Below, in pieces: positions 12,802 to 61,075 of a stretch of DNA of 64,000 nucleotides. The first letter of the stretch is position 1, and each line of letters opens with the position of its first letter. The position numbers were made by a program, and so were the translations under genes. The notes under the pieces were generated by a model that saw nothing but the letters and a program-made list of their open reading frames with translations, was not told the origin of the DNA and did not search any database. The DNA is from Protoeuglena noctilucae (taxonomy: Eukaryota). The stretch is from NCBI GenBank assembly GCA_958009085.1, contig OY253677.1, forward strand, positions 558,001 to 622,000. The letters run 5' to 3'.

Positions 12802-13222
12802 AGAGCTGGCTGGGGGGGAGTTGGGGACGCGCACTTTTGCGCCGGGATGCGGAGCTGTGCCGTGCGACGCGCTTCTCTAGCCCTCAGTGTGGTGCTGGTG
12901 CCGTCGCGGGGATGGCGCAGCGTGGGCTTCGAGTTGAAAATGCTCGTGGCGGCAGACGCGCCTGACTGACAACGCTGCAGCTCCCTCTGCGAGCGGCGGG
13001 CGATCTCCGCCGCAATTTGCACGGTCCATAGACGGTGGAATTCCGGCATCAGCGATATCGCTGTCCGAAGGCCTGACCCGCCGGGTTGGAACGGGTTGCA
13101 TCTCTCTAATCTGTCTAACATCTCCGCCGAGTGAAGATCCCAATGAAGGGTCGGGAAGGGGGCGGACGAAGCGGGGACCCGGGGCGGGGGAGCGGCGCGG
13201 GGCCGGTGGGCTTTTCGACGCC

Positions 13223-16200
13223 ATGGGTCTCCGATGTCGACTCCGACGGTGCGTGATTGTGCGTGATTGCCCGGTGCACGCGCTCCTCCTGCCGCCTGGA
13301 TGGTGCCGCGACGAGCGGGCGCGGCGAGCCGATCGCGTTGCCGTCGTGGTTGGGCGGGAGGCAGCGCACATCTGGACTCCTTGCAGCGCAGCTGGGGCGC
13401 GCCGGCTGGCCCGACATCCGCATCTGTTCGCACCATGCAGCCGTATTGCTTTCCGTTGCCCAGTGGAAGCGCTCGGTGGCCCGTCAGGTGTCCGGGCGGC
13501 TCATCCTGTCCAATGCCCTCCCGCAGCTTCCGACGTCGTGGAGAGCGAGCTGCAACTGGGCTACCTGCCTCCACCTGACGGTCATGATTTTGCCGCTGCG
13601 GTGCGGCACTGGCACGCGGCGGGCGTGGAGGCGGGGCTGTTCCAGGATGGGGCACCGGGGGTGCCGACGCTCCTGCTCGAGCGCGACAGGCTGCGGCGCG
13701 CGCGGCTTTCTGGAAGCCGCAGTAGGAGCAGGAGCCGCAGTCGGGGGCGCAGCCGGAGCGAAAGCGTGCCCCGCCGCGGAGGGGAGGAGCCCGCGACCCA
13801 ACCACGCGTGGACGAAGGGCTTGACGAGGAGGGCGCGCAGCAGGGCGAGGAAAGTCCCAGTCGAAGGGCTTTCCCCAGCGAAGAGCAGGCGAAGGGACCA
13901 TCGCTGCCGACGGCTCCGGAGCCCCAGACGTGGCCAGCCAAGGCGAGCCCGTGCGCGACCTGCGGCACGTGTCGCGCTGACCTATGTGCCCTGCTGTCGG
14001 CAACGTGGCGACACAGGAGCAGGAGCTCTCGTTTCGCAGGTCCAGGCCTCGCGGATGACGTTTCGCAGGCGCCTCGCCCAGCTCGTGGTGGACCTCACGC
14101 TCAAGGGGTGGGACCTCCGCATGGACACGCGCTTGAAGATTGCCATCCCCATGGCGGTCATGTGAGCTCGCCGGCCTCATGCAGCGCGTTGGGCTTGCGG
14201 CGATCCCCTCAGGCGCTCCCAGCACGCGATGCGGGCCTCGGACCTGCTACCTGTGACCGTTGCTGCTGCCCTGTGACATGGGGTGAGGGGCGAAGGTCAG
14301 CATTCATAAAGCCCGCCGACACCCCCCCATGCAGGGTCGTGTTTGGCCTCGTGAGCAACACGCGCGCCCACGCTGACCAGTTCCACTGCGACGACCTGAG
14401 GTCCCGCAGGCTGTGGGTCACGGCCGGGAGCGTGTCGTGCGAGGTGGCCTCGCGCATCAACATCGCGTGGATGTGCTTCCACACCAGCATGGACGTGGCC
14501 CGGCTGGTGCTGGCCCTCTTCCCGCAGACGCTCCCGCTCGCCATCCGGTGGCAGCCGTGGCTCACGGTCCTGCAGTTCATGGTGGTGTCGTACTACCACG
14601 GCATCGGCATCATGACGGGCCTCTTCACGCTCCTCATCCCCATGAAGCCCCCTCCCCAGTTCGACAACAAGTCGAGCGCCATCGTCTTCCAGTGGTGCGC
14701 CAGCCTGGTCATGATGGCCATCGGGTGCACCCTCTGGATCAACACGGGCATCCATATCTCCCCGTGGGTCGAGTGGGGCATGGCTTTCCTCACGGGCCTT
14801 CCCTACTGCGTCTCCCTATTCTGGTTCTGTTCCGTCATCCCTTCCTACCTCGACAGGCTCCCGGCAAACTTCCAGACCTGCTCCGACATCGACTACGCGG
14901 GCGCGGCCAGCGCTGCAATCATCTACCCTGCCACCTACCTCATCTTTTCCAAAATCTTCCACGGAGGCGTCGTCTCCGAAGTCAACACGGTAACGGCGGC
15001 GCCACGGCTTGAGGCATGTGCTTCTAGGCGGCTGGCGGAGGTGGCTTGGCGGCAGACCCACGCGTGGCGACCGCCCCTGTGCTGCAGCCGAACAACGGCC
15101 CGGTCGACAAGGCCGAGGGCCTCTACAAGGCGGCGTTCGGCATCGTTCTCTGCGCCGTCTTCTACGTGGTTGGCATGCTCATGGCCATGTACACACTCCT
15201 CCTGCCACCCGAGGGGCGGAACCTGACGCTGGCGGAGAGCATCATTCTATCCCCCTTCGCTCGGAGCCTCTTCATCGTCGTGGCCGCCCCCATGGCGTCC
15301 ATGGTGATGCGCAGCGCCACGCAGATATCGCAGTTCTCGCGGGATTTGATCCTCGGCGAGATCCTTCCCAAGGATGCCGCGCTGGCGGTGCTGGGCAACG
15401 TCACGCGGGCGGAACTGGCGGGCAAGAAGGGCTCGGAGTCCGATTCGGCCACGACCAGCGGCGCCGAGACCAACCGCGTGCGCCAAGTGTCAATAGACGG
15501 ACGTGAGCGCGAGGGTGTGGGCAGAAGTTCGGGACTCTGACTGGACTACACGGGGAGCACTGGATGCATAAACGAGATTCGGCGTGCCTGCTTGCAGGGC
15601 AACAGTACGCGGCGGTGCGGTACATGAAGCAGGTCGGCCGCGTGGCGGCGGTGGCCGTGGACGTGCCCGAGCTGTCGCGGCTGCTGGCGACACACGACGT
15701 GGCGGCTTGCGTGGACCTGGCGCACAAGGTGGACGTGCTGGTGGACGCCATCCTGGACCGCAGCCGCGCGCGGCGCATCGAGTCGGGGTCGCCGTCGATG
15801 GTGCTGGCGGTGGTGAACGCGGAGGGGGGGGTGGCGGACCCGGAGGAGAAGGGGCTGGTGAGGGGCGATGGGCGTGGGTGCGGGCTGGGGGTGGCAGTGG
15901 CAGGCAGGCTTGGGATGGGCAGTCCGCGAGGTGGCCAGTGATACGCTTGGATTGCCATGGATGCTGCTGTTCCACCGCATGACAGCTGGCCCGCGCCCTC
16001 GCGCCGCAGATCATCGCGGAGGCGCTGCACCTGGGTCTGCTGGACCTGTCGAGCGACCCGTCGTCGGCGAGCCTGCTGTCGCAGTCGCGGACGCTGCGGT
16101 GCCGCGCGGCGGTGGCGTCGTGCGACGCGGCGGTGGTGGTGACGGGGGTGAAGCGGCCCAACCTGCGGGTGCTGGGCCCGATCCAGGCCGTGCAGGGCAT

Positions 16201-16580
16201 CCTGGGGACCGTCACGCCAGGTGCGGGACACAGCGGGGGTGTCGTTGGCGGGGCGGGGATCGCGCAGCTGCCTGTGCCAGCGCGCAGCAGGCCATCGCCC
16301 AGCGCAAGGGTGCTGGAGCGCAATGCACCCCCGCAGGCCAGCTGTGCGTGTCGGCGCGGGCGTTCAAGATGCTGGGGGCGGACATCAAGGCGATGGCCAT
16401 GCCGCAGTCGGTGTTCTCGAAGGCCAAGCGATCGGAGACGGTGTACACGCTGCCGCTGGCGCAGGGGCCCACGGAGCCCACCGTCGCCAAGGTCGTACTG
16501 GCCCGCTCCATGAGCGGTAGCTTCGCAACGTCGTCTCAGCAGACGACATCGCGCATCCGTGTCCTCCCGCCGATGCATTA
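13223..16580 (+). CDS. Multi-pass membrane protein with a C-terminal degenerate class III adenylate/guanylate cyclase-like domain; start uncertain
   Basis: About 8-9 hydrophobic helices (14130-15310), then DLILGEILPKDAA (cyclase helical domain), VAVDVPELSRL, LRCRAAVASCDAAVVVTGVKRPNLRVLG, PGQLCVSARAFKML and KAKRSETVYTL, colinear with the cyclase consensus. Confidence 0.65.
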
Positions 16581-16762
16581 GTTCTGAGGGACTGGAAGCA
16601 TTCTGGTCTCTCTGACGTTTGTGTAGCGCCACTAGCGCCTGTTGTGTTCCCATTGCGAAGCAGTCGCAAAACTCCCGTAATACTCTGTGATTTTGCCTGC
16701 TTTAAAGCGTGCTGAAACGGTCCACCGAAGTCCGCCTCGCTTTTTTATCACCAGCGCACTCA

Positions 16763-17325
16763 ATGGCGCGGTCAGCGGCGGGCAAGGCCCTTCACGAAGA
16801 GCTCCAGTCGAAGCTTGAGGAGTCCGGCGTGCTGGACCAGCTGAGCCAGCAGCTCCACGCGAGGCTGGTGGACTGTGGGTGGAAGGAGGTGTGTTCCTGG
16901 CGCGCTCCCGGATCTGTGCGGAGATTTGCTGGCGCACGTGCATAGTTCGTTGCTTTATCCACAGCAGATAGGTGCCCTTCCGCCCGCCAGGGGCGCCTTG
17001 ACGCTGCATCCTGCCGTCCTGTCCCCAGTCGATCAAGAACCGCTGTCGCGAGCTCATTAAGGCCAAGGGATTGTCAAAAGTCACCGTGGTAGACCTTGTG
17101 CAAGAAGTTACGCCCGCTGGGCGGGCTAGCGTGCCGCAAGCCATCAAGGCAAGTGCCGGGCACGCGCCAAGGTGCCTCGCAGCCCTGCAGCCGCGTCAGG
17201 CACGCGATCGATACCCCCTCGGAAGAGCCATGCACCTGCTGACGCCATCGCAGGCGGAGCTTCTGCAGCAGGTGAAGGCGGCGATCGAGTCGGCGCAGCA
17301 GCCCAAGGGCGAACCGCGTTCCTGA
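16763..17325 (+). CDS. ENY2: Transcription and mRNA export factor ENY2/Sus1, 3 exons
   Basis: KLEESG...[24 protein letters not shown]...[31 protein letters not shown]. Intron 17149-17253 is GC-AG. Confidence 0.92.
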
Positions 17326-29600: not shown

Positions 29601-31782
29601 GGGCGCCCTGTCTGCCTATCTCAAATCCGTGCATCTGCAACCCAACAAAGCCATGTTCGACGTTTCAAGCATCGACGCAGCTGAACTGGCGCTGTCGATG
29701 GGGCTGGCGTCACTGCCGCGATTGCGCTTTCTGCGAGAGAGGGGGGGGCGCATCATTGAGGGAGGGGGGGAGGTGGAGGGTGGGGATGGGAGTGGTGGGA
29801 GTGAGGGGGGTGGGGGGAGCGAGAGTGGGGGGAGTGAGGGGGGAGAGGGGTGGGGGGTGGGGAGCGGGGGGGATGAGGATGAGGATGGGGATGGTGATGG
29901 GGATTTGCTGGCGGTTAAGCGGACGCATCGGTGGGATGTGGAGGTGAGGGGGAGGGGGTGATTGATGAGTGGGTGGGTGTGTGGTGGGATGTGAGAGGGA
30001 AGGGGGAGGTGGGTTCGTGGCGAGGGCAGTATCAGTCGCGCTCATGAATCCCGTACTATTCAGTAGTATGTATTTCTTATCACTCACTCATCCTGCCCTT
30101 TCCACCCCAGACCGAAGAACCCCCCGGCATGCCTTCTTACCCCACCGCCCCCGACGTCGCCGTTTCCGGCGCCGCCCCCTCCCAGTCTGACAAAAAGAAA
30201 AAGAAGAAAAAGAAGGATCGATTGAAGATAGATAGGACGTATTGGGATTATCCAATCGGGTGGTGTTCACGGATGATGGGCGGGCAGTGGCTGGGCTTGA
30301 CCTGTTGGGGCATGTGGGGGGTGACGGTGATATGGGTGGTGGTGCTGATGGTGGTATGGGTGGAGGTGGTGGTGGTGGTGGTGGTGATATGGGTGATGGT
30401 GGTGGCAATGTGGGTCGACATGCAAACCCCAAAGAGGGTTTGGATGTGGGGGAGCATGGGACGGCTGCCGAGAGGTTCCTGCATGCGAGGCGGGTGCTGA
30501 TGGAGAGGGACAAAGCCGACAGGGAGATGCAGGTGAGGGGGTGGGTAGTGGGGTGGGGGTGTGTGGGGTTGTGGTGGGTATGGGGTGAGGGTGTATGGGG
30601 TTGTAGTGAGGTAGTTAAGTTGAGGTGAGGTGAGGTGGGGGCTGAGGGTGTATGGGGTGTGGGGGTGGTGTCGTGGGTTGTGGTGCTGGTGCTGCTTATG
30701 AACTGCTGATTGGGTTTTCAAAAGCATGCCTAAATTTTCTTCCCCCCCCCCATCTCCTGTTTTCAAGAGCATGACTGAGCTTCCATCCCCCCTCATCCCC
30801 CCCGCAGCGTCAGCGATTGAAGGAGCGCCGATTAAAGAAGAAAATGAAAGAGAGGGAAGGGGATGACGAGGAGGTTGGGGCGGTGCTGGGGGGGAGGTGC
30901 GTTACTCATGGGGGATTGTGCGTTGTGGTGGTGTAAGGGTGTGCGTGGGGGTGTGGGGTGGGGTTGTGCATGGGGGGAGGTGCGTTGAGGTGATGTGGGG
31001 GTGTAGGGTGGGGATGTGGGGTGGGGCGGTGCTGGCGGGGAGGTGCGTTGTGGTGGTGTGGGGGTGTGTTTGGGGGTGTGGGGGTGTGCGTGGGGGTGTG
31101 GGGTGGGGCGGTGCTGGAGGGTAGGTGCGTTATTAAATGAGTGGGTGGCTGTTGGGGGAGGGGGTGAGCTGCATTGTGTGGGAGTGGTGTGGTGGTGTGG
31201 GGGTGTGCATGGGGGGAGGTGCGTTGGGTGCGGGGGTGTTGGGAGGTGAGTCGTTCTCAGCACTTCTGTTCACTACCCATTCTCTCACCTGCCCGCAGCA
31301 GCGATAGTGGCAGCGACAGTGGCGGTGGCGGCGACAGCGAGAGTGACGGTGGGGCTGCGAGGGCCGCTATCGGTCGCCGTGGCTCCCAGCAGCGCAGGCC
31401 ACACCCCACATCGTCGTTAGAAAACAGCGACGACTCCGGCGCTTTTGATTCTGGCAACAGCGACGTTTCTGACGATGACAGCGGGGGGGCGGGTGTGGAG
31501 GTGGCGTGTGCGGGGATGGGTCGGAGGGACAAGGGGGAGGGGGGATTTGGGTTGGGTGCGCGCGAGAAAGGTGGCAAGCGGGGGCGGGAGGCTGTGGGAG
31601 TGGGGGCGGATGCGGGTGCGAGGGGGAGGGAGAGGGGCGGTGCGAAGCGAGGGGGGCTGGCGGTGGGTGGGGGTGCGGGACGGGGTGATGAGGCGGGGGT
31701 GCGCAAGAGGGCTAGGAAAGTGGTGGAGAAGCTGAGTCTGGCAGAGCAGGAGGCTTTGGCGTTGCAGCTTATCGGAAAGTGA
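26625..31782 (+). CDS. DDX10: DEAD-box RNA helicase DDX10/Dbp4, multi-exon
   Basis: Q motif [67 protein letters not shown]-terminal [11 protein letters not shown]. Confidence 0.95.
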
Positions 31783-32117
31783 GAGTTTGTGATGGGTGGG
31801 GATTGCGGTGGTTTGGCAAGTGAGAGAGGGGGCGAAGGGTGGGTGGGTGGGAGAGGCGACAGCTATGCTCGTGTGATGCTGATGTTGCTGATGAGGCTTC
31901 TCTTTCTTTCAGAGTAGAATTGCTCTCTCGTCATGCCTCACTGCGCTTTCTTCAATGATACAACCATCGCATTTTGAAAGTCTCCTCATCACGCTCTCCA
32001 TCACGCGGCTCTGAGTCTGGATACAATAGTTGAGTCTGGATGCGTCGTGTGACGTGACCCTCCCTCTCTCGGCCTTCACTCGTCACGCGCCCCTCATTTA
32101 AATGGCCTTAACCACGA

Positions 32118-59135: not shown

Positions 59136-61075
59136 TCAGTTCTCCCATATCGAGATCATCTCGGTGCCCCGCGCCCCCCGCGGCTTGGCGCTGAAGTCCT
59201 CCCGGGGCAGTAAGTCGCACTGCGCCACGTGGCGCATCAGGTGGTCCGCCAGGGTGAGGGCCACCATGGCCTCCACTGCGAGGGGAGGGGAGAGTGACGA
59301 GAGGTGAGATGAGGGAGTGGAGCTGTCATGATGGCATGATTACAACTGGCCTGGTCGGCCAGGGTGAGGGCCACCATGGGCGCCACGCACGCATCGCCTT
59401 CCACTCTTTGCATGCCCTCACCCATCGGCACAGCCCTGGGCACGACGCAGGGGTCGTGCCGCCCCCTCGCGCGCAGCTCCACCTCCTCCCCGTCGCGCGT
59501 GACCGTCTGCTGCGCCTTGCCGATGGTCGACGTCGGCTTGAACGCCACCCGGATGACAATGTCCTCGCCGTTGCTGATGCCGCCCTGCACGCCCCCGCTG
59601 CGGTTCGCCGTCGTGCGCACGCGGCCATCCACAATGCGGAAAGGGTCGTTGTGCTCGGACCCCAGCATCTCTGCCCCCTTGAACCCAGAGCCGATCTCGA
59701 AGCCCTTGGTCGCCGGCTGCGGCGCGGGACGGGTTGCAATATGTAAATGGCAGGTCACAAATGCGGAATATGCAGCGCGGCGGTGTCGTGCAGGTGCATA
59801 TGAGGTGGATGGGGCAGCTGCAGCACCGGCAGCAGCAGCACCAATCCTGGTGCTGCGCCCCGCTCACCAGCGACAGCATGGCCTTGGCCAGATCGGCCTC
59901 GAGCTTGTCGAACACGGGCGCGCCGAGCCCCGCGGGGACGTTGCGCACCACGCACGTCACCTCCCCGCCACACGACTCGCCCCGCTTGCGCACCTCGTCG
60001 ATGCAGTCGTACATGCGCTGCGCCGCCTCCGAGTCTGCGCGCGGCGAGTTGTCACAAACTTCTCGCATGCGTCGGCGCTGTCGTCACGCCGCAGAGACGG
60101 CGCACAAAGCGTCGCGAACTCACCCGGGCAGCGGACGGCGTTGCTCTCGACCTCCTCGAGGGTGAACTTGGCCAGGTCGACGTTGCTGGATATATCGCGG
60201 ACCTTGTTGACGAACGCGAGGACCTCGGTGCCGTGCAGCTGGCGCAGCAGCAGCTTGGCCACCGCGCCCGCCGCCACGCGGCCAATCGTCTCGCGGGCCG
60301 ACGAGCGCCCGCCGCCCGCGACGGCGCGGATGCCGTACTTGAAGTCGTAGGTCGCGTCCGCGTGCGACGGGCGGTACGCCACCTGCATCTCCGAGTAGTC
60401 CTGGCTCTTCTGGTCCTTGTTGCGCACGAGCACCGCGATGGGCGTGCCGAGCGTGACGCCGTCGATGACGCCCGAGAGGATCTCGCACTTGTCCTCCTCC
60501 TTGCGCGGCGTCGTGATCACCAACTGCCCGGGCCGTCGGCGGTCCAGGTCGACCTGGATGTCCTCCTCCGTCAGCCGCATCCGCGGCGGCACCCCGTCAA
60601 TCACGCAGCCCACGCCCTTGCCGTGAGACTCGCCGAACGTAGTCACCCTGCGGACGCAACCGCCGGAGGGGAGCGCGTCGCGGGGCGGGGGCAGGCGGGC
60701 GCGGGGTCCGTTGGATCACGTCGAAAGGCACGACGTGGCTCGGCTGCGACAATCCCGAGCCCCGCGGTGGAAGCCCGAAGGCCCATTGTGTGCCACGCTG
60801 GAATTACACTCGCGGTGGGCGCACAGGGCGGCCTGCCTTGTCACCGGTCGTCAGGCAGAGGCCGAGCGACGCGGGTGGGCCGCCGCAGATCGCGCAGGCG
60901 AGCGGCGAGGTCCGTTTCTCGGCGCACCCGCATCCTCAGCTGCCATGGACGATTGTCACCTGAACAAGTGGCCGTACGTGTTGCCGGCGCGCGCCACGAC
61001 CCCCCTCCGGCCCCCCGCTTGCCCATGGCCCACCCCCGCCTGTGCGCGCGAGCCCGCGGGCAAGGCGGCCCTCAT
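59136..61075 (-). CDS. aroC: Chorismate synthase, plastid-targeted, multi-exon
   Basis: [63 protein letters not shown]. Confidence 0.97.

Follow-up and report, generated by a model that had tools for sequence, protein, structure and literature searches.

An orphan eight-helix membrane protein of Protoeuglena noctilucae with a putative, highly diverged and non-catalytic cyclase-homology domain

The gene described here lies in a stretch of 64,000 nucleotides of Protoeuglena noctilucae (GenBank assembly GCA_958009085.1, contig OY253677.1, positions 558,001 to 622,000 of the forward strand), referred to as the window, whose first letter is position 1. It occupies positions 13143-16581 on the + strand and is expressed and spliced, as seen in RNA contigs from marine metatranscriptomes. 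The protein combines a membrane domain with very few relatives, a short segment directly behind the last transmembrane (TM) helix (the putative handle) and a C-terminal region that weakly follows the layout of class III nucleotidyl cyclases. On balance it is probable that this is an orphan eight-helix membrane protein with a handle and a highly diverged, non-catalytic cyclase-homology domain, which would have descended from a membrane cyclase. From the sequence we infer the fold, the topology, the dimerisation and the function.

The gene model was obtained by aligning RNA contigs from four marine metatranscriptome runs (X1 to X4) to positions 12900-16900 of the window. The splice joints rest on runs X2-X4, all from one study. 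Seven introns are confirmed by RNA (Table 1) and each joint is present in all three runs, except the first, which is present in two. Intron 2 has a GC donor (GCGAGC..CAG), backed by RNA contigs of three runs. The spliced exons form a single open frame of 809 codons, from the ATG at 13143 to the TAG at 16579-81, and a loose poly(A) end follows position 16716 in run X1. The first-pass annotation of this locus, made from the letters of the DNA, had reported a frame that stays intact over many exons, which the seven RNA-supported introns bear out. Its start codon, the ATG at 13223, has to be abandoned, being out of frame with the RNA-supported joint of exons 1 and 2 and followed by a stop after 25 codons. 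In exons 3-8 the G+C content of the model frame is 0.88-0.97 at third codon positions (GC3) and 0.41-0.53 at second codon positions (GC2), a codon bias that backs the frame there. No second copy of the gene is present inside the 64-kb window.

The beginning of the protein is less firmly placed. An in-frame stop at 13116-18 lies upstream of the first in-frame ATG. Exons 1 and 2 have low GC3 and no codon periodicity, so the N-terminus (residues 1-174) is less certain than the rest. It includes the arginine/serine (RS) run that had been noted as an RS-rich N-terminus; the run is present in exon 2, and it is the coding status of exons 1 and 2 that is in doubt. Exon 2 is either weakly constrained coding sequence or belongs to a long leader. 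Exon 3 offers M180 as a possible alternative start, which would give a protein of about 630 residues. RNA contigs of runs X2 and X3 match the window from position 13179 on and are preceded by 138-255 unlike letters; one RNA contig links position 13200 to 15122 with 17 foreign letters between them. The unlike 5' RNA sequence may be the 5' end of a relative or may come from chimeric contigs, so any placement of the transcript start is provisional.

Table 1. Exons, introns and 3' end of the gene, in window coordinates.
Feature	Position	Strand	Content and evidence
Exon 1	13143..13248	+	First in-frame ATG (start uncertain); joint 13248/13527 in RNA; GC3 0.80
Exon 2	13527..13942	+	Residues 36-174, low-complexity, RS-rich; GC donor at end; GC3 0.76
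Exon 3	14040..14161	+	Arg-rich juxtamembrane stretch, M180, start of TM1; GC3 0.95; RNA joints
Exon 4	14335..14989	+	Orphan membrane core, end of TM1 to TM6, conserved Cys/Trp/Pro motifs; RNA joints
Exon 5	15088..15502	+	TM7, TM8, handle ILPKDAA (15361-15381), variable low-complexity linker from ~15430; RNA joints
Exon 6	15598..15857	+	Cyclase-like domain, N part; D593 (15660-62), E633, S636/P637 (15789-94); GC3 0.97
Exon 7	16010..16220	+	Cyclase-like domain, middle, within the C half; R711, Q717-G721 (16184-98); GC3 0.97
Exon 8	16337..16581	+	Cyclase-like domain, end (PGQLCVS to TVYTL), Ser/Thr-rich tail, TAG 16579-81; best local match to a cyclase hidden Markov model
Introns 1-7	13249-13526, 13943-14039 (GC..AG), 14162-14334, 14990-15087, 15503-15597, 15858-16009, 16221-16336	+	RNA contigs
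3' untranslated region	16582..16716	+	Up to the poly(A) site, run X1

The membrane domain spans residues 206-507, where hydropathy gives about 8 TM segments. The peaks lie at residues ~206-226, 298-316, 330-354, 365-383, 449-467 and 485-507, and two weaker hydrophobic helices were found by inspection near 257-277 and 400-424. Eight is the best count of the helices, in line with the ~8-9 first proposed. An AlphaFold2 (AF2) model of exon 4, computed from a two-row alignment, contains five long helices at low confidence (predicted local distance difference test score, pLDDT, 42.9). The open reading frame (ORF) pieces of the membrane exons match no Pfam family. Among 1.84 billion representative proteins, HMMER returned a single relative of the membrane domain, P0001, a protein of 217 residues with 56% identity, which matches up to the exon 4 boundary and apparently continues as intron read-through. 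Exon 5 is represented by a same-species variant at 99% (P0002) and by a relative at 73% identity (P0003); over TM7, TM8 and the handle (residues 434-547) P0003 is identical at 92 of 114 positions (81%). No relative of the exon 4 region was found among proteins sized 419-1334 residues, and a scan of Joint Genome Institute (JGI) metagenomes with two exon 4 peptides gave 583 pattern matches, none of which was confirmed. This domain belongs to an orphan family whose known occurrence is limited to the source alga and its close relatives. In the first and the fifth loop the cysteines are shared by the window and P0001, and a topology with these two loops outside and both termini inside the cell would fit. 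A rhodopsin-cyclase was considered and rejected: no Pfam rhodopsin was found on the membrane exons and none among the 1.84 billion proteins. Microbial rhodopsins have seven TM helices and bind retinal through a Lys in the last one; here the only conserved TM lysine, K421, sits by inspection at a helix end, with polar residues after it.

The putative handle, residues 510-547, is 87% identical in P0003 (33/38), in contrast to the linker that follows it (5/20, 25%). Class IIIa/b cyclases typically have an ILP motif in the handle helix between their membrane or sensor part and the catalytic domain. A hidden Markov model (HMM) of this motif was built from 29 columns lying ahead of the catalytic domain in 33 class IIIa-like bacterial cyclases. 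Its sole match in the 809 residues is ILPKDAA at 525-531, with a score of -2.4 bits that 13 of 500 shuffles equal or exceed. The handle helix of cyclases conveys the sensor's signal to the catalytic domain, as described in PMC7384201. The linker is also touched by a further RNA joint, 15429->15615, which has non-canonical ends (GG..CG) and is found in contigs of three runs. It skips 185 bases, made up of the last part of exon 5, the whole of intron 5 and 17 bases from exon 6, and thereby removes 90 coding bases (30 codons) with the frame kept. This joint either deletes the variable linker or marks a transcript carrying a different one.

The similarity of the C-terminus to cyclases was measured with phmmer, comparing residues 573-775 with 51 domain-only bacterial PF00211 sequences and taking the shuffled sequence as the null. 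The ten best scores average 3.13 bits, against -0.25 +/- 0.72 for the null, a value reached by one of 1500 shuffles. Fifteen PF00211 targets score above zero, compared with a shuffle mean of 2.9, and seven of the 1500 shuffles reach 15. The same statistic was applied to other families with 150 shuffles each, after dropping the loci with a stop in the match or cut by a contig end. It gives a z score of 5.10 for cyclases, and for the decoys 0.09 (29 Response_reg receiver domains), -0.23 (29 GAF), 1.08 (28 Pribosyltran), 0.47 (12 DJ-1) and 0.64 (27 HAD). The 24 GGDEF domains, which are of the same fold class, reach -0.43, and a GGDEF diguanylate cyclase was rejected as a candidate on this value. 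Among the eight families tested, Usp included, the resemblance is by this sequence statistic specific to cyclases. Of the 17 best multi-residue alignments, 15 share one diagonal (offset 580-590) that includes both halves of the domain and runs from residues 592-674 on target positions 12-89 to residues 685-746 on target positions 95-163. The C half alone, the main source of the signal, gives a z of 5.2 (1/400 shuffles), and seven of the ten best alignments of the N half fall on the diagonal of the C half. The outcome is a colinear similarity to bona fide PF00211 members that exceeds chance over the whole domain.

Two further comparisons point in the same direction. At low stringency hhalign aligned 203 columns in the register that the first-pass annotation had used. 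Atlas features of exon 6, read over the named sets, include a PF00211 cluster (rank 8, 0.88), DUF2652 (rank 9), a member of the nucleotide cyclase clan, and a guanylate cyclase fragment (rank 23); the PF00211 clusters score 0.87-0.88 and all scores are under 0.9, so these matches serve only as leads. The six motif strings from which a cyclase layout was first proposed are all present in the spliced protein, in the order given. The layout itself stood in part: the architecture is reproduced and the resemblance is, among the eight families tested, specific to cyclases, with a similarity that stays far below database thresholds and comes mainly from the C half. The gene itself is beyond chance and so, weakly, is its cyclase layout, and it is quite likely that the C-terminus is truly homologous to cyclases.

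The catalytic positions are lost at five of six sites. D593 aligns with the first metal-binding Asp and is the sole survivor in the aligned register, by both hhalign and phmmer. The Gly-Phe-Thr that follows the first Asp in the targets reads Glu-Leu-Ser in the studied protein, and the phosphate loop is replaced by Pro-Glu-Leu-Ser in every phmmer alignment examined. The residues R-I-E-S (631-634) align with K-I-K-T of the targets, which places E633 at the base-reading position, occupied by Lys in adenylate cyclases and by Glu in guanylate cyclases. All alignments put S636 or P637 where the second metal Asp belongs, and the second base-reading position is R711. In helix alpha-4 the position of the transition-state Asn is Q717 or A718, and that of the Arg is G721. 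Neither the pair of metal-binding Asp nor the transition-state Asn and Arg by which class III cyclases are recognised are present, and no class III cyclase is known to work once the second Asp, the transition-state residues, the phosphate loop and the second base-reading residue are lacking. Because the second Asp, the Gly-Phe-Thr loop, the Asn and the Arg are lost, no synthesis of cyclic AMP (cAMP) or cyclic GMP (cGMP) is expected from a homodimer or from either half of a heterodimer. If the domain has the cyclase fold, neither half of an active site can come from it. The retention of the first Asp and the loss of the second Asp and of Asn/Arg had been read by eye from the DNA, and the independent hhalign and phmmer alignments reproduce them. 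Splicing could have overturned that description by restoring the catalytic residues or by dividing the stretch into two genes. Both objections fail, because the RNA-based splicing keeps one gene in which the catalytic residues are still absent.

The reading of the locus as a membrane protein with a non-catalytic cyclase-homology domain would give the protein four parts: an RS-rich, low-complexity N-terminus, probably cytosolic; the eight-helix domain; the handle; and, behind the variable linker, the diverged cyclase-homology domain. Its ancestor would be a membrane guanylate or adenylate cyclase, from which the dimer-forming fold and the handle helix would have been retained as a conformational output or as a scaffold. 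Instead of feeding catalysis, a change in the membrane domain would reach bound partners or an active cyclase. The role of receptor or regulatory partner given to the protein in the first-pass annotation is likewise putative. Since the cyclase-like tail looks no longer catalytic, the protein probably signals without making cAMP or cGMP.

A bolder form of this scheme is possible and decidedly tentative. The eight-helix domain would be a new membrane sensor or transporter restricted to a small clade of marine green picoalgae, and its output would be purely mechanical, through a captured domain that was once a guanylate cyclase. Partner proteins would learn the state of the membrane domain from it, which would make the protein a receptor pseudo-cyclase without a second messenger, comparable to the receptor pseudokinases and at home in abundant ocean phytoplankton. 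The dead domain would still dimerise and may bind nucleotide through D593 and E633.

Homology to cyclases has to be weighed against chance. In this alternative the last 230 residues would form either a lineage-specific alpha/beta domain unrelated to cyclases or a tail that is partly disordered. Their Ala/Val/Arg/Gly-rich composition would look like a cyclase to the eye by chance, and the protein would be an orphan of the membrane, such as a transporter, channel or receptor, without a link to cyclic nucleotides. Several observations weigh against the cyclase reading. The top single phmmer score (5.7) is matched or exceeded in 46 of 1500 shuffles. Composition or periodicity makes up part of the signal, since the reversed sequence still scores 1.06, and a decoy set of 29 Usp sequences reaches a z of 2.24; both point to a generic component. 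The N half scores a non-significant z of 0.74, reached by 83 of 400 shuffles. The mean of the ten best scores was chosen as the statistic after the first results, and the hypothesis itself was picked by eye from the same sequence. The hhalign P is 0.08-0.10, with 5 of 120 shuffles as high. Every search based on a threshold is negative. Cyclase HMMs built from 20 and from 50 sequences give the spliced domain E values of 0.027 and 0.1 and scores of -0.4 and -2.0 bits, compared with a PF00211 gathering score of 21.9 bits, and the cyclase HMM matches of the single exons are trivial. PF00211 is not matched, at E up to 10, by any of six stop-to-stop ORF pieces spanning all exons, a result that is weaker than it looks, as the Pfam scan ran on unspliced pieces and the domain is split over four exons. 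Exons 6, 7 and 8, searched singly with phmmer against the PDB, give no matches at E up to 10. Atlas, read over named clusters only, gives no usable match for exon 7. The AF2 model of exon 6 alone, made from a single sequence and not addressing the whole domain, is all-helical and without strands (pLDDT 63.9); the class III fold runs beta-alpha-alpha-beta-beta-alpha-beta-beta-alpha-beta-alpha-beta-beta. A search with the exon 6 ORF retrieved nothing beyond the protein of the window itself and a same-species variant. With no relative found for the C-terminal exons, the comparison lends no support to constraint on the cyclase-like domain. Finally, an extra C that part of the RNA carries after position 16364 breaks the frame of the last strands of this domain.

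On the other hand, chance does not readily account for a z of 5.1 for cyclases beside seven decoys between -0.43 and 2.24, for a mean score that a single shuffle in 1500 reaches, or for the placement of both halves on one diagonal. The only ILP-handle match lies where cyclases have it, in the segment 87% conserved in P0003, and the named Atlas clusters of exon 6 include cyclase-related ones. A chance resemblance is held to be unlikely. A same-species variant, P0005 (ENA, window 15540-15941), has an indel in intron 6 and is not a spliced form. It runs from exon 6 through intron 6 into an out-of-frame exon 7, because the indel misled the gene caller.

In a third explanation the gene would once have encoded an active membrane cyclase and would now be decaying, still transcribed and no longer under selection, or it would be the broken one of two recent copies. 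The absence of the catalytic residues and of any relative of exons 6-8 would suit it, and so would the variants seen in the RNA. The extra C after 16364 has a depth of 47.1 out of 91.3 in X2, 87.9 out of 186.6 in X3 and 18.2 out of 18.2 in X4, roughly half of the depth in the first two of these runs and the entire depth in the third. Two substitutions accompany the extra C, T>C at 16394 and T>A at 16417. This variant may stem from a second copy of the gene, from an allele or from another strain. In addition, some RNA contigs diverge from the window after 16506. Against decay stand the X1 contigs over 16364 (depth 7.21), which have no extra C, and the 809 codons that stay in frame over seven introns. 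GC3 is 0.90-0.97 in exons 6-8; downstream of 16365 it is 0.89 in the window frame, as against 0.52 (shifted by the extra C) and 0.57, and therefore the window frame is the evolved one. Moreover, the membrane domain and the handle are 56-87% identical in relatives, with the same exon end. Decay is accordingly improbable.

An active cyclase or another nucleotidyl transferase with non-canonical residues is barely credible: D593 and E633 are kept at the metal and base-reading positions, and catalytic residues of supposed pseudoenzymes can migrate, as reported in PMC10211241, but in every alignment the second Asp has become Ser or Pro, the Asn Gln or Ala, the Arg Gly and the second base-reading residue Arg, and the phosphate loop has given way to Pro-Glu-Leu-Ser.

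The window as a whole has a G+C content of 0.58-0.71 per 2 kb and contains ordinary nuclear genes with short introns. The other genes include PRP31, RPS17, an FMO-like gene, RPS9, ENY2, a DEAD-box helicase, cytochrome b561, DUF3067, a nucleoside hydrolase, Gar1, sortilin/VPS10, chorismate synthase and an acidic ribosomal protein. The studied gene is closely flanked on both sides. The poly(A) of the upstream RPS9 lies at 12954, 189 bases ahead of the ATG at 13143. The poly(A) site at 16716 precedes the ATG of ENY2 (16764) by 48 bases; the transcript contigs of ENY2 start at ~16691-16700, so the transcripts of the two genes overlap. The exons of chorismate synthase (59240-60715, - strand) are up to 69% identical to heterocystous Nostocales cyanobacteria, which fits a plastid-derived nuclear gene. 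For RPS17, the eight best PDB matches are plant ribosomes. Together with the marine RNA runs, these matches mark the source as a plastid-bearing marine alga of the green lineage, with a compact genome. Directly after the exons of the DEAD-box helicase, positions 30001-32000 have a GC skew of 0.44, an AT skew of -0.15 and a G+C content of 0.61, and the ORFs scanned there have no Pfam match.

Counts of "cyclases" in algal genomes serve to infer the capacity for cAMP and cGMP signaling. Fully dead receptor cyclase-homology domains would either be missed by such counts, as here, or inflate them. The present gene would join a membrane domain almost without relatives to the worn remnant of a signaling enzyme, and its spliced transcripts come from natural marine communities. 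Provided the homology is true, the gene offers an entry point to non-catalytic signaling through the cyclase fold in picophytoplankton. It is also a cautionary case, in which a fast-evolving domain split by introns evades annotation of the Pfam type.

The class IIIa membrane cyclases, such as the mycobacterial Rv1625c and each half of the mammalian membrane adenylyl cyclases, consist of a six-TM anchor, a handle or cyclase transducer element and a catalytic domain. The studied protein resembles them in the succession of a polytopic anchor, a putative short helix of the form Leu-x-x-Ile-Leu-Pro-x-x-(Val/Ala)-Ala, as in the 33 bacterial sequences, and a cyclase-type domain. It differs from them in the eight helices of an unrelated orphan domain, in the variable linker of ~30-40 residues between the handle and the first strand, in the loss of five of the six catalytic positions and in a similarity that is far under the Pfam cut-off. 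A second parallel is offered by the rhodopsin-guanylyl cyclases (RhGC) of Blastocladiomycota, built of eight TM helices, a coiled coil or handle and a guanylate cyclase. The studied protein likewise has eight TM helices, followed by the putative handle and by a cyclase-type domain in which Glu takes the base-reading position. PMC7384201 discusses the handle and the N-terminal extension of RhGC. Unlike RhGC, the studied protein has a catalytically dead domain and no similarity to rhodopsin in Pfam or among the 1.84 billion proteins. Among the papers listed by a literature search, none deals with a wholly inactive membrane cyclase from algae. In the heterodimeric cyclases, namely the C1/C2 halves of mammalian adenylyl cyclase and the alpha/beta subunits of soluble guanylate cyclase, each subunit keeps the half-site that its partner lacks. 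The studied domain cannot complement a partner in this classical manner, because it keeps neither the Asp pair nor the set of Asn, Arg and base-reading residues. The likeness to C1/C2 and alpha/beta is that of a cyclase-fold subunit that lacks catalytic residues, which in those enzymes still serves dimerisation and regulation.

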